Position numbers and translations under genes: made by a program
Notes under the pieces: generated by a model
The model's database searches: none
Told to the model about the DNA's origin: nothing
Seen by the model: only the letters and a program-made list of their open reading frames with translations
Assembly (NCBI GenBank): GCA_947626005.1
Contig: CANQQM010000001.1
Coordinates: 35,496-99,495, forward strand
Direction of reading: 5' to 3'
Length of the DNA: 64,000 nt
DNA from: an uncultured Clostridia bacterium
Lineage (GTDB): Bacteria; Bacillota; Clostridia; Christensenellales; Borkfalkiaceae
Shown: one piece after another, positions 45,495-59,994 of the stretch
Numbering within the stretch: position 1 is the first letter of the stretch
Layout: each line of letters begins with the position of its first letter

Positions 45495-46124
45495 ATGAAA
45501 AAAGGTAAATTTATCGTATTCGAGGGCACCGACGGAAGCGGCAAGACGACGCAGATGCGCATGCTCGGAAAATATCTCGAGGAGCGCGGCATTCCCACCT
45601 TCCTCACCCATGAACCGACGGATTCCCCGTTCGGATCCCTTCTTCGCGCCTGCCTTTCGGGCAGGACGGACACGGACGAGTACACGATCGCCCTCATGTT
45701 CGCCGCCGACCGCACCGACCATGTGCGCAATCGGGAAAACGGCATCCTCTCCCGCCTCGAAGCGGGGGTGACCGTCCTCTGCGACCGCTACTATTTTTCC
45801 TCCTACGCCTATAACGGCGGGTTTGTTCCGCTCGAATACGTCATCGAGCTCAACCGCCCCGTGCGGGAGCTCCTCCGCCCCGACCTCGTGCTCTTCCTCG
45901 ATACGCCCGTCGAGGAGGCGATGAAGCGGGTGTCGAGCCGCGGCGAGACGGAGCGCTACGAGACGCTCGAAAAGCAGCGCCGCATCCGCGACAACTACTT
46001 TGCGGCCTTCGAGCGTTTCAAGGAAGAGGAGAATATCGTCGTCGTCCCCTGCGAAGAGGAAAGGGCGGCGACGCAGGAGAAGATCCGCCGCCTTGCGGAC
46101 GACCTCTTCGGAGGCAAAGCATGA
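45495..46124 (+). CDS. tmk: thymidylate kinase
   Basis: FIVFEGTDGSGKTTQ P-loop and DRY motif. Confidence 0.93.
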   Translation: MKKGKFIVFEGTDGSGKTTQMRMLGKYLEERGIPTFLTHEPTDSPFGSLLRACLSGRTDTDEYTIALMFAADRTDHVRNRENGILSRLEAGVTVLCDRYYFSSYAYNGGFVPLEYVIELNRPVRELLRPDLVLFLDTPVEEAMKRVSSRGETERYETLEKQRRIRDNYFAAFERFKEEENIVVVPCEEERAATQEKIRRLADDLFGGKA

Positions 46125-46621
46125 AGGAACTTCTCATCGGCACCGTCCTAAAGCCGCAGGGCATCCGCGGCGAAGTCAAAATTCTTCCCTATACCGATTC
46201 CCCCGAGGACTTTTCCTCCTTCCGCCGCGTCTTTCTCGACGGCACGGAGTACAAAGTGCTCTCGGCACGGTTCGGCGACGGGTGCGTGTTTCTGAATCTG
46301 CGCGGCGTGCCCGACCGCAATGCGGCGGAACTTCTCCGCGGCAAGAAGGTCACCGTCCCCCGCGACGAGGCCCCCGCCCCGCCCGAGGGAAGATATTATA
46401 TCGCAGACCTCCTCGGCTGCACCGTTTCGGACGAAGAGGGGAATGTGCTCGGAACGCTCACCGACGTAAGGCAGGCGGCGACGGACATCTACACCCTTAA
46501 GGGGGAGGACGGGAAAGAGATCCTGTTCCCCGCGGCAAGGGGCGTCGTCCTCTCCGTCGATATAGAAGGGGGCCGCATCACCGTCTCGAGAAAGCGTTTC
46601 GAAGAGGTCGCCGTTCTCTGA
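46121..46621 (+). CDS. rimM: 16S rRNA processing protein RimM
   Basis: GTVLKPQGIRGEVK; PRC-barrel C-terminus. Confidence 0.9.
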   Translation: MKELLIGTVLKPQGIRGEVKILPYTDSPEDFSSFRRVFLDGTEYKVLSARFGDGCVFLNLRGVPDRNAAELLRGKKVTVPRDEAPAPPEGRYYIADLLGCTVSDEEGNVLGTLTDVRQAATDIYTLKGEDGKEILFPAARGVVLSVDIEGGRITVSRKRFEEVAVL

Positions 46622-46667
46622 AACGGGTAAACGGGGTAGGATTTTTTAGGCAAAAGGGGAAAATCGC

Positions 46668-47354
46668 ATGAAGATCACCATTCTCACACTCTTTCCCGAA
46701 ATGTTCTCGGCGCTCGGGGCAAGCATCCTCGGAAGGGCGCAGCGGGAGGGAAAGCTCGACGTCGAAGTCGTCGACCTCCGCGACTACACCGAGGACAAAC
46801 ATCAAAAATGCGACGACTATCCCTTCGGCGGCGGCGCGGGGATGGTCATGATGGCACAGCCCGTCGGGAGCGCCGTCGAGGCGGTGGATCCCGCACATAC
46901 GGCCCGCCGCATCTATCTCTCCCCCAAGGGGAGGCCCTTAACGCAGGAGCGCGTCGTCTCCTTGGCGGAAGGAGGGGATATGGTGCTTCTTTGCGGCCAT
47001 TACGAGGGGGTGGATCAGCGGGCGATCGACCTCTTTATCGACGAGGAGATCTCCATCGGCGACTACGTTTTGACGGGGGGAGAACTCCCCGCGATGGTGC
47101 TCGTCGACTGCGTGGCGCGCTACATCGACGGCGTCCTCTCCCCCGAGTCCCTCGTGCAGGAGAGCTTTTCGGACGGCCTCCTCGAATATCCGCACTATAC
47201 CCGCCCCGTCGAGTACAGGGGGCTGCGCGTTCCCGAAGTGCTCCGAAGCGGCAATCACGCCGAGATCGACCGCTGGCGGCACGAACGCGCCCTCGAAATT
47301 ACCGAAAAGGCGCGTCCCGACCTTCTCAAGGGACGGGAGGAGGACAAACGGTGA
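46668..47354 (+). CDS. trmD: tRNA (guanine37-N1)-methyltransferase
   Basis: LTLFPEMF and GHYEGVDQR. Confidence 0.95.
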   Translation: MKITILTLFPEMFSALGASILGRAQREGKLDVEVVDLRDYTEDKHQKCDDYPFGGGAGMVMMAQPVGSAVEAVDPAHTARRIYLSPKGRPLTQERVVSLAEGGDMVLLCGHYEGVDQRAIDLFIDEEISIGDYVLTGGELPAMVLVDCVARYIDGVLSPESLVQESFSDGLLEYPHYTRPVEYRGLRVPEVLRSGNHAEIDRWRHERALEITEKARPDLLKGREEDKR

Positions 47355-48205
47355 AGACCATCCAATGGTTCCCGGGGCACATGGCGAAGGCGATGCGCGC
47401 GATGGAGGAGAGCATGGGGCTCGTCGACGCCGTCGTGTTCGTCCTCGACGCCCGCTGTCCCGCCTCGAGCTACAATCCCCGTCTTCGGGCGCTTGCGGGG
47501 GAGAAGCCCGTCCTCTATCTTCTTAATAAAGGGGACCTTGCCGACCGCGCGTCGGAGAGCTTTCTCTCCCTCTTTCCGAAGGGACGGGCCCTCCGCCTCT
47601 CCGCTTCGAGCCCCGCTTCCGCGCGCCCCCTTCAGGCCGCAATGGAGGAACTGGTGCACGAAAAAGCCGAACGTCTGCGCGCCAAAGGCTCCCAAAAACC
47701 CCTCCGATTTATGGTCGCGGGCATCCCGAATACGGGGAAGAGCACGGTCATCAACCTCCTCTCGGGGGCGAAAAAGGCGGTGACGGGGGACAGGGCGGGG
47801 GTGACGCGGGCCAAACAGTGGGTGCACTGCGGCTCCTTCGACCTCCTCGACACCCCGGGCACGATGCCCCCCTCCTGCGCAGATCAGAGATTGGCGCGGC
47901 GGCTTGCCTACGTCGGGTGCATCAACGACGACATCCTCGCCCTCGACGAAATTGCCCTCTCCCTCCTCGAAGAGCTGTACGAAAAAGCCCCCGCGGCGCT
48001 TTCCGCACGCTACGCGATCTCGGGCGGCACCCCCCTCGAAATGTTGGACACGGTATGCAAAAACCGCGGATTTCTCCTCCGCGGCGGGGAGTATGACTAC
48101 GAGCGCGGCGAAAGGGCGGTCCTCGACGATTTGCGGAAAGGGAAACTCGGCCGCGTCTGCTTCGACAGCGCGGAGGATCTTTCCGCCGTCGGGCTCATTT
48201 CATAG
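47351..48205 (+). CDS. rbgA: ribosome biogenesis GTPase A (YlqF)
   Basis: IQWFPGHMAKA, circularly permuted G-motifs LLNKGDLA and GIPNTGKST. GTG start overlapping the trmD stop. Confidence 0.92.
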   Translation: MKTIQWFPGHMAKAMRAMEESMGLVDAVVFVLDARCPASSYNPRLRALAGEKPVLYLLNKGDLADRASESFLSLFPKGRALRLSASSPASARPLQAAMEELVHEKAERLRAKGSQKPLRFMVAGIPNTGKSTVINLLSGAKKAVTGDRAGVTRAKQWVHCGSFDLLDTPGTMPPSCADQRLARRLAYVGCINDDILALDEIALSLLEELYEKAPAALSARYAISGGTPLEMLDTVCKNRGFLLRGGEYDYERGERAVLDDLRKGKLGRVCFDSAEDLSAVGLIS

Positions 48206-48214
48206 GGGGACGGT

Positions 48215-48850
48215 ATGGACGAACTCACTTTGGAGCGCGAATATTTCTCCCGGGGCTTCGCTGCGGTCTGCGGCGTGGACGAGGTGGGAAGGGGCCCCTT
48301 GGCGGGACCCGTCGTCTGCGCGGCGGTCATTCTCCCCCTCGGGGAGGAACAGCGCATCCGCGGCATCGACGACAGCAAGAAGCTCTCCGCCGCCAAGCGG
48401 GAAAGACTTGCCGAAGAGATCAAAAAGGCCGCCCGTGCCTATGCGATCGCGGAGGTCGACGAGCGCACGATCGACGAGATCAACATCTTGCAAGCGACCC
48501 GTCTCGGCATGAAACGGGCGGTCGAGGCGCTTTCCCCCGCACCCGACTTCGTCCTCACCGACGGGAACATGACCCTCGAGCTCTCCTTGCCGCAGAGGAG
48601 CATCGTGAAGGGGGACGCCCTCGTCGCATCGATCGGCGCGGCGAGCATCCTCGCAAAGGTGTATCGGGACGGGCTCATGCGCCGCTATGCGGAGGAGTTC
48701 CCCGAATACGGGTTCGAACGCAACGTCGGCTACGGGACGAGGGAACACCTCGAAGCGATAAAAGAGGTAGGCATATGCAGAATTCACCGAAGGACTTTCG
48801 TAAAAAAGTATTGGGACGGAAGGGAGAGACCGTCGCCTGCAAATACCTGA
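48215..48850 (+). CDS. rnhB: ribonuclease HII
   Basis: GVDEVGRGPLAGPV and DSKKLS. Confidence 0.93.
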   Translation: MDELTLEREYFSRGFAAVCGVDEVGRGPLAGPVVCAAVILPLGEEQRIRGIDDSKKLSAAKRERLAEEIKKAARAYAIAEVDERTIDEINILQATRLGMKRAVEALSPAPDFVLTDGNMTLELSLPQRSIVKGDALVASIGAASILAKVYRDGLMRRYAEEFPEYGFERNVGYGTREHLEAIKEVGICRIHRRTFVKKYWDGRERPSPANT

Positions 48851-49134
48851 AAAAGCACGGCTACAAGATCCTCGAACGCAACTACAGGACCCCCTTCGGC
48901 GAGGCGGACATCGTCGCCCTCAAAGACGGCTACACCTGCTTTGTCGAAGTCAAGACGAGGGAGAGCGACGTGTTCGGGCTCCCGACGGAGGCCGTCACGC
49001 GCGAAAAACAGCGCCGCTACCGCATGATCGCGGGCTTCTACTGTACGACGATCGGCCGCGAGGTGCCCATCCGCTTCGACGTCGCCGCCATCTTCGAGGG
49101 CGGGCTCGAATACTTCGAGAACGCTTTCATCTGA
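48775..49134 (+). CDS. YraN-family (UPF0102) endonuclease-like protein
   Basis: GETVACKYLKKHGYKILERNYR...GEADIVAL...FVEVKTR. The start is uncertain: ATG 48775 or TTG 48811. Either one overlaps the rnhB 3' end. Confidence 0.85.
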   Translation: MQNSPKDFRKKVLGRKGETVACKYLKKHGYKILERNYRTPFGEADIVALKDGYTCFVEVKTRESDVFGLPTEAVTREKQRRYRMIAGFYCTTIGREVPIRFDVAAIFEGGLEYFENAFI

Positions 49135-49149
49135 GGATAGGGCACGATT

Positions 49150-49172
49150 CGTCCCTTCGGGGGCGGTTTTTT
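49150..49172 (+). terminator. intrinsic terminator after yraN
   Basis: CGTCCC-TTCG-GGGGCG hairpin followed by GTTTTTT. Confidence 0.7.
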
Positions 49173-49235
49173 GTTGCCCGAAATCGGTTATTTGCGGAAA
49201 AAGAGGGAAAAATATCCGAAAAGCGTCGAGAGACC

Positions 49236-49264
49236 TTGCATTTCGCGCGAAAATATGATATACT
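49236..49264 (+). promoter_or_regulatory. sigma-A-type promoter with extended -10 (TTGCAT-17-TGaTATACT) of the giant helicase gene
   Basis: TTGCAT 49236-49241, TATACT 49259-49264. Confidence 0.6.
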
Positions 49265-49314
49265 TTTTCGGAAACAATGTTGAGCCCGTGCGTATGTACG
49301 GGCGCGGGAGTCGT

Positions 49315-52300
49315 ATGGCGGGCAAAAAACGGAACACACTCAACGAAAAAATCGCACTCGAGCTGCGTTTCCCCAAGTATGTGGGATACGCCGATCATTT
49401 CCTCTCCACCCCGGCGCGGGTGCAGATCAAGAGCGGCTTCGAGGAGGCGGCGGCGCTCAAGCTCGTCCTCACCTCCCCCGAGGGGCTTCTCACCGCCTTC
49501 GAAGAGACGGTGGAGGTCCCCTTCGAGAGCACCGTCGAAGTGGTCGCAAAGAACATCTTCTCTCCCGTCTATTTGGCGGAGGCGGAGGAGGTAAAGACGG
49601 CCGAGGTTCGTGCCGCCGTCTATTCCGAGGGCAAGGAGATCGCCTCCGCGTCGGCGGAGATCACCGTGCTCCCCTTCGACTGGTGGGAGGGCCTTTCGGG
49701 CAATGCCGAGCGCATCGCTTCGTTCGTCCGTCCCCGTCTCAGCGACTGCGCCCCCGTCCTCTCGGAGGCGGGAAAGCGCCTTCGGAAGTGGGAAGCCGAC
49801 TCCGAGTTCTGCGGCTACCTCGACGCCGACAAAGACACGGTGCGCCGTGCCGCCGCGGCGATCTATGCGGCGATCCGCTCCTTCGGGTTTTCCCGCGAGG
49901 AGTGCGACCTTTCGGGCCCCGTTCCCGCTTCGGCGGAGGGCTCTCTTCTCAAGGATAAGACGGCGGACGAGTTCCGCCTTGCGGTCTTTGCCTGCGCCTC
50001 CCTCGAGGCGGCGCAGCTGCACCCCGTCCTCGCGGTGGGGAAGAATACCGTCGCCGTGGGGGTTTGGCTGTATAACAGCTGCTTCCTCGACAGCGTGACG
50101 GACGACGCGGAGATCGTCGAAAAGTACACGTCGGAGGGGATCAACAACCTTGCCTTCTTCGACGCCGCCGACCTCTTTGCGGGGAAGAACGTCGCATTCG
50201 GCACGTCGGAAGGGCACTTCCGCGAAAAACTCAAGAGCGGGCTCTACGAGTGCTTCGTCGATATCCGCCGCTGCCGCATCGGCGGGGTTCTTCCGTGCCC
50301 CGTCCGCGGGAAGGGGCTCCGCGGGTACGAAGTGCTCCGCGAAGAGGAGATGTCCGACTCCGCGGCGCCCGCCCCGCTCCCCGTCGTGCGCGATCTTCGC
50401 CTCGACGGCAAACAGCCCAAAAACAAGCAGTGGGAGCGCCGCCTTCTCGACCTCAGCGCCAAGAACGCCCTCCTCAACTTTTCGGGGAAGAACGCGCTCC
50501 ATCTCGCCTCCTCCTCGCCCGACGAGTTCGTCGCCCGTCTCACGGCGCAGGGGAGCGTAAAACTCAAGGAGGGGGAGGAACTTACTCCCTTCGGCGGAAC
50601 GCTCACCCCGCAGCGCCGCGAACTCATCGCCATCGAACAGGAGAAGGGGGTGTTCCGCGTCTCGGGCGACCGCGCCTCCCTCTCGGAGACGGCGGGCAAG
50701 CTCATCCGCAGGATGCGGGAATCGGTCGAAGAGACGGGGGCGCGCATCCTCTACCTTGCCGTCGGATTTTTGCGCTACGTCTCCAAGGAGGACGGCGCTC
50801 CCAAGTTTGCGCCGCTCGTCCTCATGCCCGTCGGGCTCGGCCGCGCCAAGGGGAACGAGGATTTCTCCCTTGCGGCGACGGAGGAGGGGTACTTCGTCAA
50901 CTCCACCCTCCTCGAGTTTTTGAAACAGGAATTCAACATCGACATCCGCGGGCTCGGGGAGGACGTCTCGGCGCTCAAAATTTCCGAGATCCTCGCCATG
51001 GTGCGCGTGGAGACGGCTTCGATGAAGGGCTGGAGCGTGTTCGACGACGTGTACGCCTCCGCCTTCTCCTTCCAGCGCTACCTCATGTGGAACGATCTGA
51101 GGACGCACTTCGACGCCTTCAAAAAGAATGCGAACATCGCGGCGCTCGTCGGCGGAAAACCCGTGCGGGAGGGGGCGGCCGCCGATCCCGACGAGGACGA
51201 GAGCGACCCCGCGGAAGTGCTCCTTCCCCTTCCCTCCGACAGTTCGCAGTACGCCGCCGTCGCCCTCTCGGGGACGGGGACGAGCTTTGTCCTCCACGGC
51301 CCCCCGGGAACGGGCAAGAGCCAGACGATCACCAACATCATCGCAAACGCCCTGCATAAGAACAAGCGGGTGCTCTTCGTCGCGGAGAAGAAGGCGGCGC
51401 TCGACGTCGTCAAAAAGCGGCTCGACGCGGTCGGCATCGGCGAATTCTGCCTCGAGCTCCACTCCAACAAGACGGACAAGGCCGACGTCCTCCGCCGCAT
51501 GGAGGCGACCCTCGCCCTCGCGGGGAGCGCCGAAGCCGCTCCGATCGACGACCGTGCCGAAGAGCTTGCCTCCCTCAGGGAGGAGCTCCGCGAACCCATG
51601 ACGGCTCTGCACAAGAAGCGCCGCCTCGGCGTCTCGGTGTACGAGGCCATTCTCGGCTACCTCAAAAACAAGAACGCGCCCGACATCCTCGACATCGAGA
51701 GCGCCTTCTACGACACCCTCACCGAAAAGAAACTCTCCGAATGCCGCAACATGATCCTCGTCGCGGCGGCGGCGGCGAAGGAGTGCGGAGGGGTATTCAA
51801 CTCTCCCTTCGAGAACGTCAACCTCAACGAATATACGCAGGAACTCCGCGACCGCGTGTTCTGCGCAAGCGAAGTCATCGTCACCGAGATCAAGCACCTC
51901 AAGTCCTTTCTGGCGCTCTTCCTCGAATTTTACCGTCAGCGCATTTCGACGATCACGCGGCGCAAGCTGCTCTCCCTCTGCGACATCGCCCGCGACTTCG
52001 CCGACGGGGTGTACGACAAGTACTATCACGGGGTGGGGGAAGAGGACTTCTACGTATTCTATAATGCGAACAGACGGCTCGATTCCTGCCTCAACTACTA
52101 CTTCAAGCACTTCAAGACGCTCGTGGATCCCGACGGGGCGGAGGAGATCGGCGCCTACCTCGAAAAGGGCGGGGACTGGAAGCTCTCTAAAAGCGCAAGG
52201 GCGGCCGCGAAGCAGCTCTCCCGCGCCGCCGTCCGTCCCATCGCCGACGAGGACATGCCCAAGTTCCTCCAGACGGTGGTCGAGATCGACGCCGCGATGA

Positions 52301-54912
52301 AGCGCATCACGGGCATCTCCCTTTCCAAGAATTTCACCGACCGTGCGGGGCGCATCGTGTTCCGCCGCCGCAACGAATATCTCTCCGAGCTCTACGCGCT
52401 GCACACCAAGTGCGCCGCGACCTTCCTCGACTACAACCCCGACTCCTTCAACGGCATGTGCATCCGTGCGGCAAACGGGTACACCCTTCCCGTCCTCGAG
52501 GGATTTCTGAAGGCCGCCGATTCCTACTTCCACGCCGAGGAGAGCTTCCTCGCGGTGACGAAGGGGGAGCGCGGCAAGATCCGCGGGGAGGACGTCCTCG
52601 ACTACTTCTCCGCGAAGGCGTCGGCGCTCATCGACAACGTCGACCTCCTTCCCAACTGGTGCATGTACCGCGCAACGGCCAAAAAGCTCTCCGCGCTCGG
52701 GCTCAACTTCATCGCCGACGCCTTGGAGAGCGGCCGCCTCAAGGTGGAGAACGTCCTTGCGGGGTTCGAAAAGAACGTCTACAAGAACTTCCTCGAGATC
52801 AACATCCCCGCCGACCCCGCTCTTTCGCGCATGACGGTCGGGACGCTCGAGGACACCGTCGAAAAATTCCGCCTCGCGTGGGAGGAGTACACCAAACTCA
52901 CCCGCGCCCACCTCCGCGCCGAGCTCATCTCGCGGCTCCCGGGGAGCGATGCGGAAGGGGATATCGGGCTCGAGCTTGCGAGCTTCACCCGCTTTTCGAG
53001 GAGCAACCTCCGCGGGACGGGCATCCGCGCCATGTTCGCCGAGATCGGGACGCTCTCCGCTTCCCTCTGCCCCTGCCTTCTCATGAGCCCGACGACGGTG
53101 GCGCAATATCTTCAGCCCGAGGCAGACCTCTTCGACCTCGTCATTTTCGACGAGGCCTCCCAGATGACGACGGCGGAGGCGGTCGGGTCGATCGCAAGGG
53201 CCAAGGCGGCGGTCGTCGTCGGCGATCCCCGCCAACTCCCGCCGACCTCCTTCTTCCGTACGAGCGCCGTCGACGAGGACGACCTCGAAAACGAGGACCT
53301 CGAGAGCGTGCTCGACGACTGCCTCGCCCTCGGAATGCCCGAGCGGCACCTCATCTGGCACTACCGCAGCAAGCATGAAAGCCTCATCGCATTCTCCAAC
53401 GGAATGTACTACGACAACCGCCTTTGCACCTTCCCTTCGCCCGACGCGCTCGAGAGCAAGGTCCGCCTCGTGCAGGTGGACGGCACTTACGACCGCGGCT
53501 TCACCAAGCGCAACCGCCGCGAGGCGGAGGAGCTCGTGAAGGAGGTCGTGCGCCGTCTCTCCGACCCCGTCCTCTCCCGTTCGAGCATCGGGATCGTCAC
53601 CTTCTCGGGGGCGCAGCAGGAGGACATCGAACGGCTCCTTTCCAAGGAACTTGTCCGCCTCAAGCTCGACGGCGTCGCCTACGAGCGCGAGGAGCCCCTC
53701 TTCGTCAAGAACCTCGAGAACGTGCAGGGGGACGAGCGGGACGTCATTCTCTTCTCCGTCTGCTACGGCCCCGACAAGACGGGGCGGGTCTCCCTCAACT
53801 TCGGGCCCCTCAACCAAGCGGGCGGCTGGCGGCGGCTCAACGTCGCCGTCTCCCGTGCAAGGGAGGAGATGGTGGTATTCTCGACGATGACCGCCGCGAT
53901 GATCGACCTCGCCAAGACCTCCTCGAAGGGGGTCGCGGGGCTCAAGGCCTTCCTCGAATTTGCCGAAAAGGGGAGAACGACGCTTGCCGTGCGGTCGGAT
54001 TCGGTGCGCGGCGGCGCGGGGATCGGAAGGTACATCGCCGCCGAGCTCTCCTCCTACGGCTACGACTGCCGCGCCGACGTCGGGGCCTCCGACTTCAAGG
54101 TGGACGTCGCCGTCGTCGATCCCGACGACAAGCGCCGCTTTGTCCTCGGTATCCTCTGCGACGGGACGGAGCGCTTCTCGGTAAAGGACCGCAACCTCCT
54201 TCAGGTCCAGACCCTGAAGCGGGGGAATTGGAACGTCGTGCGCGTCAACAGCGTCAACTACTACAACAACCCCAAACGGGAAATCAAGCGGATAAAAGAC
54301 CTTCTCGACCGTCTGACGGGGGCGGGCCGCAAGACCGATTCGCACCTTTCGAAGAGCGCCAAGGCCTACCGCTATGTGAAGGCGACGGCGGCGGAGACGG
54401 CGGCGTTTATTACTTGCGGCGACAACGACACGGACATCATGGCGCGGCTTAAAGAGATCGTCGCCGCCGAGGAGCCCATCTCCCGCGCCTTCCTCAAAAA
54501 GAGGTGCCTTGCAAGTTTCGGGATCTTAAAGAGCGGGACGAAGGTGGACGGGCGGCTCGACGCGCTCATCGACGCCTGCGCCTTCAACCGCGACCGCGTG
54601 GCGGGCGTCGACTACTTCTACAAAAATCTGCGCGCCCTCCAGCTCGGCAGATACCGCACCGATCCCGAGGACGGCGCCGTCAAGCGCTCGGATGACGACT
54701 ACACGGTGTACGAATTCGTCTCTCTCATCCGCGCCGCGCTCGAGGACCGCGTCGCGCTCTATATGGACGAACTGCTCTCCGTCGCCGCGGGGGCGCTCGG
54801 CGTCGTGCGGCCGAGTGAGAAGTTCGTCTCCTTCCTTCGCACCTGCGTCGGGTACGGCGAGGAGAAGGGCATCTTCGTCCGCTCCGTCTCCGACCGCATC
54901 TCTCTCGCCTAA
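49315..54912 (+). CDS. giant SF1 (Upf1/Dna2-like) helicase with DUF4011-like region, Vsr/DUF559-like endonuclease fold and DUF3320-like C-terminus
   Basis: DUF4011-like segment WERRLLDLSAKNALLNF. Helicase motifs LHGPPGTGKSQT, VIFDEASQM, VVVGDPRQLPPT, YRSKHESLI, VQGDERDVILFS, LNVAVSRAREE. PD-(D/E)xK-like segment GYDCRADVGASDFKVDVAVVD...ILCDG. Start ATG 49315 (GGGAG upstream); alternative ATG 49294. Confidence 0.9.
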   Translation: MAGKKRNTLNEKIALELRFPKYVGYADHFLSTPARVQIKSGFEEAAALKLVLTSPEGLLTAFEETVEVPFESTVEVVAKNIFSPVYLAEAEEVKTAEVRAAVYSEGKEIASASAEITVLPFDWWEGLSGNAERIASFVRPRLSDCAPVLSEAGKRLRKWEADSEFCGYLDADKDTVRRAAAAIYAAIRSFGFSREECDLSGPVPASAEGSLLKDKTADEFRLAVFACASLEAAQLHPVLAVGKNTVAVGVWLYNSCFLDSVTDDAEIVEKYTSEGINNLAFFDAADLFAGKNVAFGTSEGHFREKLKSGLYECFVDIRRCRIGGVLPCPVRGKGLRGYEVLREEEMSDSAAPAPLPVVRDLRLDGKQPKNKQWERRLLDLSAKNALLNFSGKNALHLASSSPDEFVARLTAQGSVKLKEGEELTPFGGTLTPQRRELIAIEQEKGVFRVSGDRASLSETAGKLIRRMRESVEETGARILYLAVGFLRYVSKEDGAPKFAPLVLMPVGLGRAKGNEDFSLAATEEGYFVNSTLLEFLKQEFNIDIRGLGEDVSALKISEILAMVRVETASMKGWSVFDDVYASAFSFQRYLMWNDLRTHFDAFKKNANIAALVGGKPVREGAAADPDEDESDPAEVLLPLPSDSSQYAAVALSGTGTSFVLHGPPGTGKSQTITNIIANALHKNKRVLFVAEKKAALDVVKKRLDAVGIGEFCLELHSNKTDKADVLRRMEATLALAGSAEAAPIDDRAEELASLREELREPMTALHKKRRLGVSVYEAILGYLKNKNAPDILDIESAFYDTLTEKKLSECRNMILVAAAAAKECGGVFNSPFENVNLNEYTQELRDRVFCASEVIVTEIKHLKSFLALFLEFYRQRISTITRRKLLSLCDIARDFADGVYDKYYHGVGEEDFYVFYNANRRLDSCLNYYFKHFKTLVDPDGAEEIGAYLEKGGDWKLSKSARAAAKQLSRAAVRPIADEDMPKFLQTVVEIDAAMKRITGISLSKNFTDRAGRIVFRRRNEYLSELYALHTKCAATFLDYNPDSFNGMCIRAANGYTLPVLEGFLKAADSYFHAEESFLAVTKGERGKIRGEDVLDYFSAKASALIDNVDLLPNWCMYRATAKKLSALGLNFIADALESGRLKVENVLAGFEKNVYKNFLEINIPADPALSRMTVGTLEDTVEKFRLAWEEYTKLTRAHLRAELISRLPGSDAEGDIGLELASFTRFSRSNLRGTGIRAMFAEIGTLSASLCPCLLMSPTTVAQYLQPEADLFDLVIFDEASQMTTAEAVGSIARAKAAVVVGDPRQLPPTSFFRTSAVDEDDLENEDLESVLDDCLALGMPERHLIWHYRSKHESLIAFSNGMYYDNRLCTFPSPDALESKVRLVQVDGTYDRGFTKRNRREAEELVKEVVRRLSDPVLSRSSIGIVTFSGAQQEDIERLLSKELVRLKLDGVAYEREEPLFVKNLENVQGDERDVILFSVCYGPDKTGRVSLNFGPLNQAGGWRRLNVAVSRAREEMVVFSTMTAAMIDLAKTSSKGVAGLKAFLEFAEKGRTTLAVRSDSVRGGAGIGRYIAAELSSYGYDCRADVGASDFKVDVAVVDPDDKRRFVLGILCDGTERFSVKDRNLLQVQTLKRGNWNVVRVNSVNYYNNPKREIKRIKDLLDRLTGAGRKTDSHLSKSAKAYRYVKATAAETAAFITCGDNDTDIMARLKEIVAAEEPISRAFLKKRCLASFGILKSGTKVDGRLDALIDACAFNRDRVAGVDYFYKNLRALQLGRYRTDPEDGAVKRSDDDYTVYEFVSLIRAALEDRVALYMDELLSVAAGALGVVRPSEKFVSFLRTCVGYGEEKGIFVRSVSDRISLA

Positions 54913-54917
54913 AACAT

Positions 54918-54946
54918 TTGACAAATCCGCGCGGATGTGATAGAAT
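54918..54946 (+). promoter_or_regulatory. sigma-A-type promoter with extended -10 (TTGACA-17-TGaTAGAAT) for trkH
   Basis: TTGACA 54918-54923, TAGAAT 54941-54946. The spacer contains the palindrome ATCCGCGCGGAT (54925-54936). Confidence 0.6.
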
Positions 54947-54967
54947 CACGCGGAACGGAGGGCGGAT

Positions 54968-56326
54968 ATGAAATTTCCCAAAATCAGAAGGAGACTCAAC
55001 GTATGGCAGTATCTTGCCATCGGATATCTTGTAGTCATCCTCACGGGCAGCATCCTCCTGACGTTGCCGTTTGCCTCCAAAGAGGGCCTCACGAGCTATA
55101 TCGACGCCCTCTTCACCTCCGTCTCCGCGACCTGCGTCACGGGGCTCACCCCCTTTGAGACCAACGTCCACTGGACGGTGTTCGGGCAGGTCGTCATCCT
55201 CCTTCTCATCCAGACGGGCGGGCTCGGCTTCATGACGATCGTCTCCGTCCTTCTCCTCCTTGTGAAGCGCGGGCTCGGACAGTACGAACGCCGCGCCGTC
55301 ATCCAGTCGGTGGGGGGCGGACAGCTTGCGGGGGTCAAGCGCCTCACCCGCCGCATCCTCATCGGAACGGCCATCTTCGAATTTTTGGGAGCGGTCTTTC
55401 TCAGCATCCGCTTCATTCCCGACCTCGGCACGGGAAGGGGGATCTATTACGCCCTGTTCCACTCCGTCTCCGCCTTCTGCAATGCGGGCTTCGACCTCTT
55501 CGGCGGAACGGGCCTCGGCGCGGGGTCGCTCTCCTACTATGCGACCGACCCCCTCGTCGTCCTCCCCGTCGTCGTGCTCATCCTTGTCGGCGGCTTCGGC
55601 TTCTGCGTGTGGGGGGACGTCGTCGATTGCCGCTTCAACCCCAAGAAATTCCAGTTCTATACGAAGGCCATTCTCGCCGTCAACTTCGGGCTTCTTCTCT
55701 TTTCGACGGCGTGCTTCCTCGGCTTCGAATGGCATAATCCGACGTACACGGGGTATAATTTCGGACAGAAGCTCCTCCTCTCCCTCTTCAATTCGACGAC
55801 GGCGCGGACGGCGGGATTCTGGACGACCGACCCCTCGTCGCTCTCGGCGGGCGGGTACTTCCTCACCGTCATCCTGATGTTCATCGGCGGCTGTTCGGGC
55901 TCGACGGCGGGCGGCGTCAAGGTGGGCACGGTGACCGTCATCGTCATGGGTATGGTCGCCGCCTTCCGCGGGAAGAAGGATATCACGATCGGCAAACGCC
56001 GCGTCGACAGCACCTTGCTCGGACAGGCGCTTGCGATCTTCGTTTCCTACCTCACCCTCGTCATTTTGGCGACGCTCATGATCTGCGCCATCGAACCGGG
56101 CGACGCCGAGACCTTCCGCTGCGCCCTCTTCGAGACGGTCTCCGCCCTCGGGACGGTCGGACTTTCGATGTCGTATACGGCGACGCTCACCGTCGCCTCC
56201 AAGCTCATCCTCATCTTCCTCATGTATGCGGGGAGGGTGGGCGTTCTGACCCTTGCCTTTGCGCTCTCGCGCAAGCGTGACACGGCGGAAGTCCGCCGCC
56301 CTGTCGACAACTTCTTTATCGGATAA
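54968..56326 (+). CDS. trkH: TrkH/KtrB-family potassium uptake membrane subunit
   Basis: Four pore-loop glycine motifs (CVTGLT, NAGFDL, RTAGFW, TVGLS) in a polytopic protein. Confidence 0.92.
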   Translation: MKFPKIRRRLNVWQYLAIGYLVVILTGSILLTLPFASKEGLTSYIDALFTSVSATCVTGLTPFETNVHWTVFGQVVILLLIQTGGLGFMTIVSVLLLLVKRGLGQYERRAVIQSVGGGQLAGVKRLTRRILIGTAIFEFLGAVFLSIRFIPDLGTGRGIYYALFHSVSAFCNAGFDLFGGTGLGAGSLSYYATDPLVVLPVVVLILVGGFGFCVWGDVVDCRFNPKKFQFYTKAILAVNFGLLLFSTACFLGFEWHNPTYTGYNFGQKLLLSLFNSTTARTAGFWTTDPSSLSAGGYFLTVILMFIGGCSGSTAGGVKVGTVTVIVMGMVAAFRGKKDITIGKRRVDSTLLGQALAIFVSYLTLVILATLMICAIEPGDAETFRCALFETVSALGTVGLSMSYTATLTVASKLILIFLMYAGRVGVLTLAFALSRKRDTAEVRRPVDNFFIG

Positions 56327-56342
56327 TCGGGAGGAAAAAGTT

Positions 56343-56996
56343 ATGAAATCCGTTTTGCTCATCGGGATGGGAAAGTTCGGGCGCACGCTCGGGCAGAAAC
56401 TCCTCAACATGGGGAATGAGGTGATGATCGTCGACAAGGACGAGAGCGTCATCAACGCGCTTGCGCCCCGCTACACGAACGCCCTCATCGCCAACTGCAT
56501 GAACGAGGACAGCTTGCGCGCGATGGATATTCCCTCCTTCGACGTCTGCATCGTCGCCATGGGCGACGAGTTCCAGTCCTCGCTCGAGATCACGGCCAAC
56601 CTTAAGGACCTCGGCGCGAAGCGGGTCATTTCCAAGGCGGAGACGGAGATCCAGAAGAAATTTTTGATGCGTGTCGGCGCGGACGAGGTCATCTATCCCG
56701 ACGTCGATATCGCCGAGAAGCTGGCCGTCCGTCTCAACTCGTCCAACGTCATCAACTTCATCGACCTCGACGCGGAGTACTCCATCTTCGAAATCGCACT
56801 TCCCGAAAAGTGGCGGGGGCGCAAGCTCATCGACATCAATCCCCGCTCCAAGTACGGCATGAACATCCTCACCGTCAAGAAGGGGACGAACATCATCTCC
56901 TCCCTCGACGGGAATTACGTCTTCGAGGAAGGGGACCAGCTCGTCGTGTTCGGCAACACCGAGCAGATCCTCAAATTCACCAACCGCCAGAAGTAA
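56343..56996 (+). CDS. trkA: TrkA/KtrA-family RCK potassium uptake regulatory subunit
   Basis: LLIGMGKFGRTLG Rossmann motif plus TrkA_C-like C-terminus. Start at the internal ATG 56343 with GGGAGGAAAAAG upstream. Confidence 0.92.
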   Translation: MKSVLLIGMGKFGRTLGQKLLNMGNEVMIVDKDESVINALAPRYTNALIANCMNEDSLRAMDIPSFDVCIVAMGDEFQSSLEITANLKDLGAKRVISKAETEIQKKFLMRVGADEVIYPDVDIAEKLAVRLNSSNVINFIDLDAEYSIFEIALPEKWRGRKLIDINPRSKYGMNILTVKKGTNIISSLDGNYVFEEGDQLVVFGNTEQILKFTNRQK

Positions 56997-57029
56997 GGTC
57001 TGCGGCCAAGGACCGCGGGAGGGGATATT

Positions 57030-58013
57030 ATGTGCACGGCGATCTCGTTTCGAACAAAAGACGCCTATTTCGGGCGCAATCTCGACCTCGAGGGCTCCTT
57101 CGGGGAGGGCGTGTGCATCGCGCCGAGAAATCTTGCCTTCGAATTCCGGAAAGAGGGGACGCTTTCCCGCCACTTCGCCCTCATCGGCACGGCGATCGTT
57201 CGGGGGAACACCCCCCTTTGGTTCGACGCCGTCAACGAAAAGGGGCTCGGCATGGCGGGGCTCAACTTCCCCAAAAACGCCCGCTACTTTCCCCCGAAGG
57301 AGGGGAAGAAGAACGTCGCTCCCTTCGAGCTCATCTCCTTCGTCCTCTCTAAGTGTTCGACGGTGAAGGAGGCAAGGGCCCTCCTTTCCGAAGTCAACGT
57401 CGTCTCCATTCCCTTCGATGAGACCCTGCCCCTGACGCCCCTCCACTGGATGATCGCCGACGGGGAGGAATGCCTCGTCGCAGAGCCGACGGAGGCGGGG
57501 CTTCTCCTCTACGACGACCCCGCGTTCGTCCTCACGAACAATCCGCCCTTCCCCGAGCAGCTCACCCGCCTTCGCGACTATCTGAGCCTCACCGTGGACG
57601 AGCCGAAAAGCCGCTTCTCGGAGCGCCTCCCGCTCGAGCCGTACAGCCGCGGCATGGGCGCCATCGGCCTCCCCGGCGACTGGTCGTCCGCTTCCCGCTT
57701 TGTAAAGGCGGCCTTTCTTCGGGCGAACATCGTCGCGGGAGAGGGAGAAGAGGGGGGCGTGTGTGCGTTTTTCCACATGCTCGAGGCGGTCGCGATGCCG
57801 CGCGGGCTCGTCCGCTTGAAGCCCGAAGTCTATGAGGAGACGGTGTACTCCGTCTGCTGCAACACCCGCACGGGGCGGTACTACTACACCACCTACGGGG
57901 AGAGGTCCCTCCACGCCGTTTCCCTTGAAAATGAGGACATGGAGGGCGGAAAACCCGTCTTTTACGCCTTTGCGCATACGCTCGGCGTGCGCGAGGACAA
58001 CGCTCGCAGCTAA
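57030..58013 (+). CDS. choloylglycine (bile salt) hydrolase / linear amide C-N hydrolase, Ntn family
   Basis: MCTAIS (Cys2 nucleophile), FGRNLD, GLNF, TNNPPF, SASRF positions. Confidence 0.88.
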   Translation: MCTAISFRTKDAYFGRNLDLEGSFGEGVCIAPRNLAFEFRKEGTLSRHFALIGTAIVRGNTPLWFDAVNEKGLGMAGLNFPKNARYFPPKEGKKNVAPFELISFVLSKCSTVKEARALLSEVNVVSIPFDETLPLTPLHWMIADGEECLVAEPTEAGLLLYDDPAFVLTNNPPFPEQLTRLRDYLSLTVDEPKSRFSERLPLEPYSRGMGAIGLPGDWSSASRFVKAAFLRANIVAGEGEEGGVCAFFHMLEAVAMPRGLVRLKPEVYEETVYSVCCNTRTGRYYYTTYGERSLHAVSLENEDMEGGKPVFYAFAHTLGVREDNARS

Positions 58014-58038
58014 AAAGAAGCGTTCGAGGGGCCCCGGT

Positions 58039-59994
58039 ATGCGGAAGATCGGTACGGTCGTCAATTTTCGTCCCATTCTTTTCTGCGCGCTCGGGCTCGT
58101 GTACGGGATCGCGCTGTATTTTCGCATTCGGTTCGGGGGATTTGCGCCCTCGGACCTTCTCTTTTTGGCCCTCTTCCCGATGGCGGCGTTTCCCTTCGGC
58201 AAGAAGCGCGTTCTCGCCGTTCTTCTCTCCTTCCTCCTCTTTTCGGGTGCGGGAGCGGGCTTTGCCCATGCGGGGGCGGAACGGTTTTTAAGCGGCCCGA
58301 AGGAAGGGGAATACCACATCAACGGAACGGTGTACGAATTGATCGAAGAGGACGACATCACCTTCGCCGTTCTCGGCCGTCTCTCCTTCGACAAGAAGCG
58401 CTGCGGCGGGAAGATGCAGATCGATTTGGAGACGTACGGCATACGGGAGGGGGACGTCATCGCCTTCGACGCCGAAGTGCTTCGCAATCCGATTTCGGGG
58501 AAGGAGGGGGAATACTGCTTTTCCGCCGACCTCCGCTACGTCGCCGCGGCAAGGGAGGTACAGCTCATCGGAAAGACGCGCGACCCGATGCTCCTCCTCC
58601 GCGCCGCCCTCCATAGGACGCTCGACCGCCACCTCGATCCGACGCGGGCGGAGGTCGCCTACGCCCTCCTCACGGGCAACTCGCACGGCATGGACGAAGG
58701 CCTTTTGGAGGAGGTGAGAAGGGGCGGGATCGCGCACATCTTCGCCGTTTCGGGACTGCATATCGGCATTTTGTACGGGGCGGTCGTCTTTCTCTTCCGT
58801 CGGCTCGAACGCTTTTCGACCATCCCCGCCTCCCTGTTCGCCTTCCTCTATACCGCCTTTTGCGGATTCACCGTCTCCGCCGTCCGCGCCTTCGTCATGT
58901 GCACGGCGCTCGGCCTTCTCCGCGTCATCGGCAAAAAGCACGACTTTCTGACCTCCCTCTCCCTCTCCGCCCTCTGCATCTTGCCCTTCCTGCCGAGCGA
59001 ATTCCTCTCGGCGGGCTTCCGCCTCTCCTTCGGCGCCTGCCTCGGGCTCGGGTTGTTTTCGGGTACCGTATCCCGCCTTTTGGGGCGGATCCCGCACTTT
59101 CCCGCCTTTCTCCGAGACTACCTCTCGGCGAATTTCTCCGTCCAGATCGTCACCTTTCCCATCCTCCTCGAGACCTTCGGCTACTTCTCGGTGTGGGGGA
59201 GCCTTCTCAACCTCTTCCTCATTCCGCTCCTTCCCGCCTTTTTCCTCTCCATTCTGCTCTTTTCGCTGCTTGCGCTCATCATTCCGCCCGCCGCGGGTTT
59301 CTTCCTTGCCGTCCCGAACGGCCTCCTCGGCGTGTTTACGGCGATTTTCTCCTTCGCCGACTTTTCGGCGGTGCTCGCGGGGTTTTCGCTCGGCGCGGGC
59401 GGGACGATCTGGCTTGTCGGCTGTATCCTCCTTTCCGAGCGGGTGCGGCTTGCCCCGCTTGTCCGCGGGATCGCGGCGGGCGTGCTCGTTCTTCTCTTCA
59501 CGGCGGCGGTCGTGATGCAGAACGTCGTATTCACGGGGACGCGCATCGACGTCTCCACGACGGGTTCGGGCACCGCCGCCCTCGTCCGCACGCCGCATGC
59601 CGCCGTCCTCGTCATCGACGAACTCTCCCTCGGCGACGCGGAGGACTTCCTCCTCCGCCGCTACGGCAAAACGCTCGACGGGATCATCGTTCTCGGGGAG
59701 GACGAACTCGTCCCGATCAACCGCGCCGCCTTCCTCCCTGCGGAGGCGGTGTATGCGAAGGACGAAATCAGTACGGGCCTGAGGGAAACGGCCGTCGTGT
59801 TCGGCGATCGGGTGACGGTCGGCGGGCTCGAATTTGTGTTTGAGAGCCGCGAAAAGCTCACCCTCGTCACCGAAGGGCTCGTCGTGGAGTTCGATTTCGA
59901 CGGAGAAGGGGCATTCGGCGCCGATTTATTTGTTCATCCCGTCGAAGGGGACTTGATATTTTCGCTCAGACATGGTATAATCAAATCGCTATGA
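58039..59994 (+). CDS. comEC: ComEC/Rec2 DNA internalisation channel protein with degenerate, shortened C-terminal metallo-beta-lactamase region
   Basis: N-terminal TM/OB region and competence-domain pattern (LLTGNSHGMDE...GIAHIFAVSGLHIGIL). The C-terminus lacks the HxHxDH motif. Start at the internal ATG 58039. Confidence 0.88.
   Translation: MRKIGTVVNFRPILFCALGLVYGIALYFRIRFGGFAPSDLLFLALFPMAAFPFGKKRVLAVLLSFLLFSGAGAGFAHAGAERFLSGPKEGEYHINGTVYELIEEDDITFAVLGRLSFDKKRCGGKMQIDLETYGIREGDVIAFDAEVLRNPISGKEGEYCFSADLRYVAAAREVQLIGKTRDPMLLLRAALHRTLDRHLDPTRAEVAYALLTGNSHGMDEGLLEEVRRGGIAHIFAVSGLHIGILYGAVVFLFRRLERFSTIPASLFAFLYTAFCGFTVSAVRAFVMCTALGLLRVIGKKHDFLTSLSLSALCILPFLPSEFLSAGFRLSFGACLGLGLFSGTVSRLLGRIPHFPAFLRDYLSANFSVQIVTFPILLETFGYFSVWGSLLNLFLIPLLPAFFLSILLFSLLALIIPPAAGFFLAVPNGLLGVFTAIFSFADFSAVLAGFSLGAGGTIWLVGCILLSERVRLAPLVRGIAAGVLVLLFTAAVVMQNVVFTGTRIDVSTTGSGTAALVRTPHAAVLVIDELSLGDAEDFLLRRYGKTLDGIIVLGEDELVPINRAAFLPAEAVYAKDEISTGLRETAVVFGDRVTVGGLEFVFESREKLTLVTEGLVVEFDFDGEGAFGADLFVHPVEGDLIFSLRHGIIKSL
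59953..59981 (+). promoter_or_regulatory. internal sigma-A-type promoter with extended -10 (TTGATA-17-TGgTATAAT) inside the comEC 3' end, 9 nt before the holA ATG
   Basis: TTGATA 59953-59958, TATAAT 59976-59981, holA ATG 59991. No SD in between. Confidence 0.55.

Follow-up and report, generated by a model that had tools for sequence, protein, structure and literature searches.

Helicase-nucleases with a DUF4011 domain, among them Hhe, ProA and PDC-S37, are large and widespread single-gene systems. Hhe (HheA) of Gao et al. 2020 has been described as a single-gene system of unknown mechanism, and in our literature search no paper reporting a mechanism was found for the Hhe, ProA or PDC-S37 enzymes. 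Among the PDB sequence matches no solved structure of such a DUF4011 helicase-nuclease was found. The MTES_1575 architecture comprises a superfamily 1 (SF1) helicase, a Vsr-fold restriction endonuclease (REase) and two winged helix-turn-helix (wHTH) domains that overlap DUF3320 (Anantharaman et al. 2013, PMC3710099); DUF4011 is also mentioned in PMC11232893. In this study we analysed a DUF4011 helicase-nuclease gene in a stretch of 64,000 nucleotides (the window) from contig CANQQM010000001.1 of an uncultured Clostridia bacterium. The gene lies between yraN and trkH, and the original prediction, made from the sequence of the window, had put it forward as a candidate stand-alone, Hhe-like defence island. 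From profile comparison we concluded that the protein is a new, sub-threshold member of the known ProA / PDC-S37 family. The gene is fixed in the chromosome and passed on mostly by vertical descent, although loss, inversion, and allele replacement or hyper-divergence occur now and then, and we consider it fairly probable that its product is an anti-invader enzyme, fixed in the chromosome and used against invading DNA.

Family placement and domain architecture

The protein was compared with the models for ProA (NCBIfam NF058533 'anti-phage protein ProA', release 20.0, June 2026, equivalog cut-off 1500 bits), Hhe (NCBIfam NF042953, equivalog cut-off 2000 bits, and PADLOC PDLC02194) and PDC-S37, a single-gene 'phage defence candidate' of PADLOC-DB v2. 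ProA was the top model in every library tried. It scored 1408.8 bits, which is 94% of its cut-off (91 bits short), in one colinear stretch that joined residues 47-1832 of the protein to model positions 27-1903 of 1903, and the full-length ProA architecture including the N-terminal module was recovered. PDC-S37 scored 943.6 bits (E = 6.6e-284) over residues 371-1848 and model positions 11-1533 of 1550, as a match to the hidden Markov model. The Hhe model NF042953 reached 669.6 bits against its cut-off of 2000, and its best stretch covered only residues 1092-1715, so that the match was neither at equivalog level nor full-length. PDLC02194 gave 466.9 bits at positions 1208-1781 of 1911 and was outscored by PDC-S37. 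The weaker PADLOC matches, Mokosh MkoA and MkoC and DpdJ, were confined to the helicase. ProA still ranked above Hhe for five highly divergent alleles that occupy the same site in related genomes. Because the ProA and PDC-S37 models score about twice as high as Hhe and over a far longer stretch, the protein is assigned by its model matches to the ProA / PDC-S37 branch of the DUF4011 superfamily, in which Hhe forms a sister branch.

Pfam recognised DUF4011, AAA_11, AAA_12 and REase_MTES_1575 above threshold. Structure models were built with AlphaFold (AF2) from 51-sequence alignments, and confidence is given as predicted local distance difference test (pLDDT). The parts of the gene are as follows.

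49315-54912, forward strand: coding sequence of the ProA-like / PDC-S37-like DUF4011 helicase-nuclease, with 522 homologues.
49315-50424, forward strand: N-terminal module, residues 1-370, with an Ig-like beta-sandwich (residues 13-118) and an alpha/beta domain (residues 131-340); AF2, pLDDT about 85-90 over most of it.
50440-50922, forward strand: DUF4011, residues 376-536; Pfam PF13195, 101.7 bits against a cut-off of 22.2, model positions 1-158 of 158.
51235-51504, forward strand: N-terminal part of helicase domain 1A with Walker A GPPGTGKSQT (residues 662-671); Pfam AAA_11, PDB sequence match to IGHMBP2.
51505-53079, forward strand: all-alpha insertion of about 520 residues within helicase domain 1A (residues 731-1255); long helices in AF2, pLDDT 85-93.
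53080-53904, forward strand: C-terminal part of helicase domain 1A and domain 2A; Pfam AAA_11/AAA_12, motifs II DEASQM, III GDPRQLPPT, QGDERD and VI VAVSRARE.
54034-54300, forward strand: Vsr-fold PD-(D/E)xK nuclease REase_MTES_1575, residues 1574-1662; Pfam PF18741, 61.7 bits against a cut-off of 38.2.
54310-54909, forward strand: C-terminal tail, residues 1666-1865, with winged-helix-like repeats, weakly DUF3320-like; helix-helix-helix-strand-strand in AF2, pLDDT 82-91.

The AAA_11 match came in two stretches, residues 642-727 and another near 1258-1311, and AAA_12 covered residues 1341-1523; with 67.2 and 57.1 bits against a threshold of 27, both halves passed. DEASQM starts at residue 1279, GDPRQLPPT at 1303, QGDERD at 1471 and VAVSRARE at 1510. 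All motifs quoted in the original prediction for a Upf1/Dna2-like SF1 core were thus present. Walker A was invariant in 40/40 homologues, and motifs I, II, III, V and VI were invariant or nearly so in the 40 homologues, the most divergent alleles included. PDB sequence matches of the motor were IGHMBP2, Sen1 and Upf1. The fold search returned Aquarius, SETX, IGHMBP2, Dna2 and Upf1, with weak scores (template-modelling score about 0.1 over the whole model). The helical insertion had no Pfam family, and only weak coiled-coil-type matches were obtained for it in the fold search. Among the acidic residues of the nuclease, position 1597 was Asp in 38 and Glu in 2 of the 40 homologues, D1602 was Asp in 39/40 and D1616 in 40/40. 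From these data the enzyme is predicted to be a Upf1-like SF1B motor fused to a Vsr-fold endonuclease, with catalytic motifs that are intact and conserved. The DUF4011 segment, which was folded in the AF2 model, and the Vsr-like nuclease had likewise been read correctly before. For the DUF3320-like tail the earlier reading held in part: the winged-helix topology was seen in the model, but DUF3320 (PF11784) stayed below its threshold (17.9 bits against 25, E = 0.0031, tail scanned alone) and gave no match at E <= 0.01 in the scan of the full-length protein.

No Pfam family was found for the N-terminal module (residues 1-375, E <= 5), and its beta-sandwich gave only generic Ig-like matches in the fold search (C3 MG, CARDB and TG2 domains). 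A search at E <= 1e-3 placed the module in 971 representative clusters. In most of the non-fragment matches listed it was located at the N-terminus of proteins of about 1,800-2,000 residues; some matches lay behind an extra extension of 200-340 residues in proteins of 2,100-2,400 residues, and a few further inside mid-length proteins. We take the module to be a signature of the ProA / PDC-S37 branch. In its alpha/beta domain C256 was nearly invariant and H301 and D316 were invariant (nucleotides about 50080-50262). A transglutaminase/papain-like site, an idea prompted by the MTES_1575 architecture and by these residues, was unsupported, with no Pfam match at E <= 5. In the AF2 model H301 lay in a helix and C256 beside a low-confidence loop, and the trio was not placed as in a transglutaminase core. 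The combination of Cys, His and Asp is suggestive of a hydrolase or transglutaminase-like site, but that fold is backed by neither Pfam nor the model.

Site occupancy, inheritance and allele turnover

The closest of the 522 homologues in the protein database was 73% identical, followed by a smooth run of proteins of about 1,860 residues down to 57%, from Clostridia metagenome-assembled genomes such as Gallimonas and Borkfalkiaceae. The contigs with the 71%, 68% and 64% homologues shared the order fhs-...-rimM-trmD-GTPase-rnhB-yraN-gene. Homologues at 57% and 62% were found in other housekeeping contexts; the copy in locus L004 still adjoins comEC-holA, and in L006 the adjacency to yraN or comEC was lost. 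For an unbiased test of occupancy, 80 species-representative loci were collected with RNase HII (RnhB) as the anchor. The close clade, Gallimonas-like Clostridia of animal guts, was defined by RnhB at least 68% identical and contained 42 informative species. In 37 of these (88%) the gene was located directly after yraN, and in 5/42 it was missing from the site; in the sister Scatosoma-like clade it was present at the yraN site in 0/25 species. Core-gene behaviour combined with the lack of any defence-model match, which the original prediction had named as an argument against itself, was found in its first part: the gene is near-core within the clade, but the model matches are strong. The reading frame was intact in all 42 copies that were not cut by a contig end.

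The commonest order was yraN-gene-comEC-holA, and since comEC-holA is the commonest downstream partner, trkH-trkA-cbah is an extra segment in the window. The gene-less sites contained upp and a large lipoprotein gene (L039, L048, probably L029), galT and phoH (L024), or methyltransferases and one TIR-domain protein (L010). The latter, a TIR_2-domain protein of 423 residues, is flanked by SAM-dependent methyltransferases, one of them with a PUA-like domain (L010:7602-10881, reverse strand), and could be a defence gene. In some species the interval from yraN to the gene held unrelated small inserts, namely HTH-SdpI (HTH_3-SdpI, L001:6852-7511), an alpha/beta hydrolase (L044:10932-11828), an AlkZ-related glycosylase (L007:2047-2757), a leucine-rich-repeat (LRR) protein (zinc-ribbon-LRR, L037:10981-12528) and Fe-ADH. 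The yraN junction was considered as a defence hotspot and rejected, as the replacing or accompanying genes are unrelated to defence save the one TIR protein. We concluded that the yraN-to-gene interval is a small integration-tolerant spot and not a defence hotspot. In four species (L007, L008, L009 and L011) the gene was inverted together with its promoter, and these copies showed 54-62% identity.

To describe inheritance, the gene was compared with concatenated rimM, trmD, rnhB, yraN and fhs. Within the main allele class the pairwise identity of the gene tracked that of the housekeeping genes with a slope of 0.94 (Pearson r = 0.69), and the neighbour-joining gene tree reproduced the housekeeping clades, with exceptions. 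The GC content of the gene followed that of the host from 0.52 to 0.68, and in the window it was 0.634 against 0.622 in the flanks. The alleles L013, L016, L049 and L028/L037 shared only 42-50% identity with the main class or with one another, except for the pair L028-L037 (71%). Their hosts were nested inside the main-class clades, with housekeeping genes 72-80% identical. L016 is the nearest genome to the window by housekeeping genes (80%), yet its allele was 48% identical. Thus at least four allele lineages, about 50% divergent, occur at one site. Such deep allele turnover is expected of a conflict gene. A scan of metagenome contigs for a donor of the L013 allele gave nothing closer than 50%, so that horizontal replacement and in-situ hyper-divergence are here indistinguishable. 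Within the main class, identity was 85% in the helicase core and 80% in the nuclease, as against 58% in the N-terminal module, 59% in DUF4011, 66% in the insertion and 63% in the tail.

The L016 allele (L016:10924-15360) was found to be without the N-terminal module of about 330 residues and is a natural N-terminal deletion variant. Its frame opens 3 nucleotides beyond the yraN match, and as it lacks a promoter motif, it is probably co-transcribed with yraN.

No tRNA gene was found within 35000-64000 of the window, no meaningful flanking repeats were detected, and no recombinase or integrase was present among the Pfam-annotated neighbours. The features of a defence island or mobile cargo (clustered defence genes, mobility genes, tRNA, repeats, GC anomaly and patchy presence) were not found. 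No near-identical copy (>90%) was found in unrelated genomes or on mobile elements: the best match among database proteins had 73% identity, and viral contigs and plasmids gave 45% at most. Relatives at 32-37% identity, annotated 'DUF3320 domain-containing protein', occurred in 515 plasmid records. One unannotated faecal 'Bacteriophage sp.' contig carried a relative at 37%, and about ten IMG/VR contigs carried relatives at 34-45%; phage carriage of close relatives was rejected, since the viral matches are only 34-45% identical. Mobility occurs now and then in the superfamily, but in none of the close relatives of the present gene.

The best plasmid relative (L119, NZ_OY725931.1, Bacteroides finegoldii 'plasmid 29', 7734-14823) showed 32% identity at 91% coverage. 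This record also carries rpsA and glnA (glutamine synthetase III) and looks like a chromosomal fragment. The relative sits between rpsA and a gene for a 'reverse transcriptase family protein', which might be a defence reverse transcriptase.

Transcription unit and neighbouring genes

The frame runs intact from ATG 49315 to the stop codon at 54912 and encodes 1,865 residues, as the original prediction had it. The control elements in front of it are listed here.

49149-49172, forward strand: intrinsic terminator of the rimM-trmD-GTPase-rnhB-yraN unit, a UUCG-loop hairpin with a T-run, from the terminator scan.
49236-49264, forward strand: own promoter with -35 TTGCAT, a 17-nucleotide spacer and extended -10 TGaTATACT, from sequence reading and conservation.
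49306-49310, forward strand: ribosome-binding site GGGAG, 4 nucleotides 5' of the ATG; GGAG-like motifs align in related loci.

The yraN gene ends at 49134 and is followed by the terminator hairpin (49149-49166), for which RNA folding gave -20.2 kcal/mol (z = -3.0 against shuffles). A GC-rich hairpin with a T-run was seen at the equivalent position in several related loci. The promoter lies below the threshold of a generic scan because its -35 element matches only 3/6. The pattern TTGnnn-N17-TGnTAnnnT was nevertheless found within 250 nucleotides of the start codon in 28/42 related loci, against 1.3% of shuffled controls, mostly in the form TTGC...ATGGTATAAT, and was retained in all 4 inverted gene copies. 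The intergenic DNA around it could not be aligned between related loci. Both the upstream terminator and the gene's own extended -10 promoter, as they had been proposed, were accordingly borne out. No Rfam match at E <= 0.1 was obtained across 46000-58000 (leader and flanks) and the idea of a regulatory RNA was dropped. We concluded that the gene is, as far as can be read from these signals, an autonomous transcription unit with its own conserved promoter, shielded by a terminator from the housekeeping unit upstream. The start codon at 49315 agrees with the 'MA..KK' N-terminus shared in the alignment of 18 related loci. A longer, TTG-initiated frame from 49171 is unneeded, given the GGGAG site and the conserved N-terminus at ATG 49315. 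An antisense open reading frame on the reverse strand (48784-54345, 1,853 residues) was dismissed as a high-GC artefact, as all homology is on the forward strand. The same artefact occurs in L039 and could mislead annotation that is based on open reading frames.

Upstream of the gene the window contains purine-biosynthesis genes, fhs, a mutY-like gene, tmk, rimM, trmD, a ribosome-biogenesis GTPase gene, rnhB and yraN, and downstream trkH, trkA, a choloylglycine hydrolase gene, comEC, holA and a DUF1015 gene; the flanking genes from rimM to yraN and trkH and trkA had been named correctly beforehand. No terminator was found 3' of the helicase-nuclease gene, so that read-through into trkHA is possible. 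A trkH promoter (TTGACA-17-TAGAAT, 54918-54946) begins 6 nucleotides past the helicase-nuclease stop codon; it is a near-consensus extended -10 promoter (11/12, TG present), and its spacer holds the palindrome TCCGCGCGGA, a possible operator. The choloylglycine (bile-salt) hydrolase gene (57030-58013), between trkA and comEC, was not present in any of the 86 related loci in the comparison. It is in keeping with life in the gut and seems to be an insertion specific to the lineage. The listed comEC frame (57832-59994) overlaps the end of this gene by about 180 nucleotides (57832-58013), and the true comEC start is probably located further downstream.

Proposed function, rival explanations and known systems

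An anti-invader enzyme that has been fixed in the chromosome is the explanation we favour, with some reserve. The main arguments for this role are the dispensability of the gene, the inversions and the deep allele lineages. Upf1-like SF1B helicases translocate 5'->3' on single strands, Vsr-fold endonucleases nick duplex DNA, and Dna2 is a precedent for a helicase-nuclease. In the mechanism we propose, the wHTH tail together with the N-terminal, DUF4011 and insertion modules would recognise a feature of invading or aberrant DNA, for example free ends, 5' tails or the intermediates formed when a phage or plasmid replicates. Judged by its family membership, the motor would then translocate 5'->3' on one strand with ATP and could feed the duplex or flap into the Vsr-like nuclease. 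Nicking or cleavage at that point would block the replication of the invader. The turnover is concentrated outside the catalytic cores; this suggests that specificity is determined by the N-terminal module, DUF4011, the insertion and the tail.

Several observations weigh against this explanation. The curated equivalog cut-offs of ProA and Hhe were both missed. Helicase domain 2A and the nuclease were poorly modelled, with low AF2 confidence, and the substrate, polarity and trigger in this mechanism are predictions from homology. The literature search found no paper describing ProA or PDC-S37; as no ProA paper was found and PDC-S37 is only a candidate, the defence role rests on database labels. 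Among the neighbours, defence models gave nothing beyond trivial kinase/GTPase similarity. Near-core conservation, purely housekeeping neighbours and the lack of a defence neighbour are atypical for defence genes and fit genome maintenance equally; near-core conservation and the housekeeping neighbourhood are also the main arguments for a housekeeping role. In P. aeruginosa the DUF4011 gene PA14_RS11765 is core in every isolate examined, where it flanks the defence hotspot cDHS1 (Johnson et al. 2023, PMC10250203).

The gene could instead encode a domesticated housekeeping enzyme of genome maintenance, Dna2/Sen1-like, that deals with R-loops, flaps, stalled forks or transforming DNA and is allied with rnhB, yraN, comEC and holA. 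Its 88% occupancy at one site, the phylogeny congruent with rimM, trmD, rnhB, yraN and fhs, the strong purifying selection on the catalytic motifs, the fully ameliorated GC content, the resemblance of the conserved promoter to a vegetative sigma-70-type promoter and the lack of defence neighbours all agree with this. So do the distant genomes that keep the gene among housekeeping genes (L004 beside comEC-holA), the core status of the DUF4011 gene in P. aeruginosa (PMC10250203) and the closest relatives of known structure, Sen1/SETX, Dna2 and IGHMBP2, which are eukaryotic helicases of genome/RNA maintenance. However, with the site empty in 5/42 species of the close clade and filled in 0/25 of the sister clade, the gene is dispensable at least at this position, and alleles about 50% divergent together with inversions, in hosts that are 72-80% identical, are unlike the evolution of a housekeeping gene. 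Moreover, the top curated models are both defence models, and the adjacency to yraN/comEC was lost in L006. We give a housekeeping role a minor but real chance. A further reading, which we regard as unlikely, is that domestication turned a ProA-like enzyme of this Clostridia clade, and perhaps independently one of P. aeruginosa, into a near-core chromosomal guardian whose substrates are endogenous or incoming DNA (transforming DNA imported by ComEC, R-loops, flaps). If this were true, the DUF4011 'defence' proteins would link immune functions with the upkeep of the genome, and balancing or diversifying selection acting on the sensing modules would account for the deep allele lineages found at a single locus.

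Genuine membership in the Hhe system (Gao et al. 2020), which the original prediction had proposed, would account for the matching order of DUF4011, SF1 helicase and Vsr-like nuclease and for the significant matches to the NCBIfam and PADLOC models of Hhe (669.6 and 466.9 bits, respectively). What was upheld is the assignment to a single-gene DUF4011 superfamily that includes Hhe, with strong matches to anti-phage models. The 2000-bit cut-off was missed, the match was confined to residues 1092-1715, the C-terminal third to half of the protein, ProA and PDC-S37 scored about twice as high in full-length alignment, and the N-terminal module of 370 residues lies inside the ProA model and outside the Hhe-matched region. 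Hhe membership is largely refuted by the model ranking, and we hold it to be very improbable. Hardly credible is a recently acquired single-gene defence island, carried as mobile cargo between yraN and trkH. The gene's own promoter, the terminator of the upstream unit, the mildly plastic junction with unrelated small genes between yraN and the gene in some species, and the inversion of gene and promoter in four species would suit such an island. The claim of an island nevertheless fell on the housekeeping neighbours, on the GC content (0.634 against 0.622 in the flanks) and on the congruent phylogeny of a gene present at this site across a genus-to-family-level clade (37/42 species). No tRNA, no meaningful flanking repeats and no recombinase among the Pfam-annotated neighbours accompany it, and the gene-less sites hold upp and a lipoprotein gene or galT and phoH, not other defence systems. 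By comparison with yraN-gene-comEC-holA it is trkH-trkA (with the bile-salt hydrolase gene), not the helicase-nuclease gene, that forms the variable insert.

The locus shows that one branch of the DUF4011 family can persist over long evolutionary periods as a chromosomal fixture, surrounded by housekeeping genes and equipped with a promoter of its own. Discovery pipelines based on defence islands would miss or misjudge copies with such long-term residency in a housekeeping context. The approximately 40 orthologous and replaced alleles at one site offer a ready-made natural experiment for mapping specificity determinants.

Among the known systems, ProA shares with the present protein the same colinear N-terminal module, DUF4011, split helicase, nuclease and tail; the difference is that the present copy is a vertically inherited chromosomal resident and not defence-island cargo. 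PDC-S37, a candidate system only, is matched over nearly its complete model, which is without the N-terminal module of 370 residues. With Hhe/HheA the protein shares the superfamily and the order of DUF4011, Upf1-like SF1 helicase and Vsr-like nuclease, but only its C-terminal helicase-nuclease part (residues 1092-1715) aligns, at about half the ProA/PDC-S37 scores. Proteins of the MTES_1575 type have in common with it the order helicase, Vsr-fold REase (the domain that defines PF18741, matched here above cut-off) and wHTH; MTES_1575 itself carries HEPN and transglutaminase domains, of which no signal was detected here (Pfam, residues 1-375, E <= 5). IGHMBP2, Sen1/SETX, Upf1, Aquarius and Dna2 match the motor by sequence or fold, and Dna2 is likewise a helicase-nuclease fusion, but these are eukaryotic RNA/DNA maintenance factors without DUF4011, the 520-residue insertion, the Vsr-fold nuclease and the wHTH tail. 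The core status of PA14_RS11765 parallels the near-core behaviour found here, a likeness at the level of the DUF4011 label; that gene adjoins a defence-rich hotspot, whereas the present site is without other defence genes.

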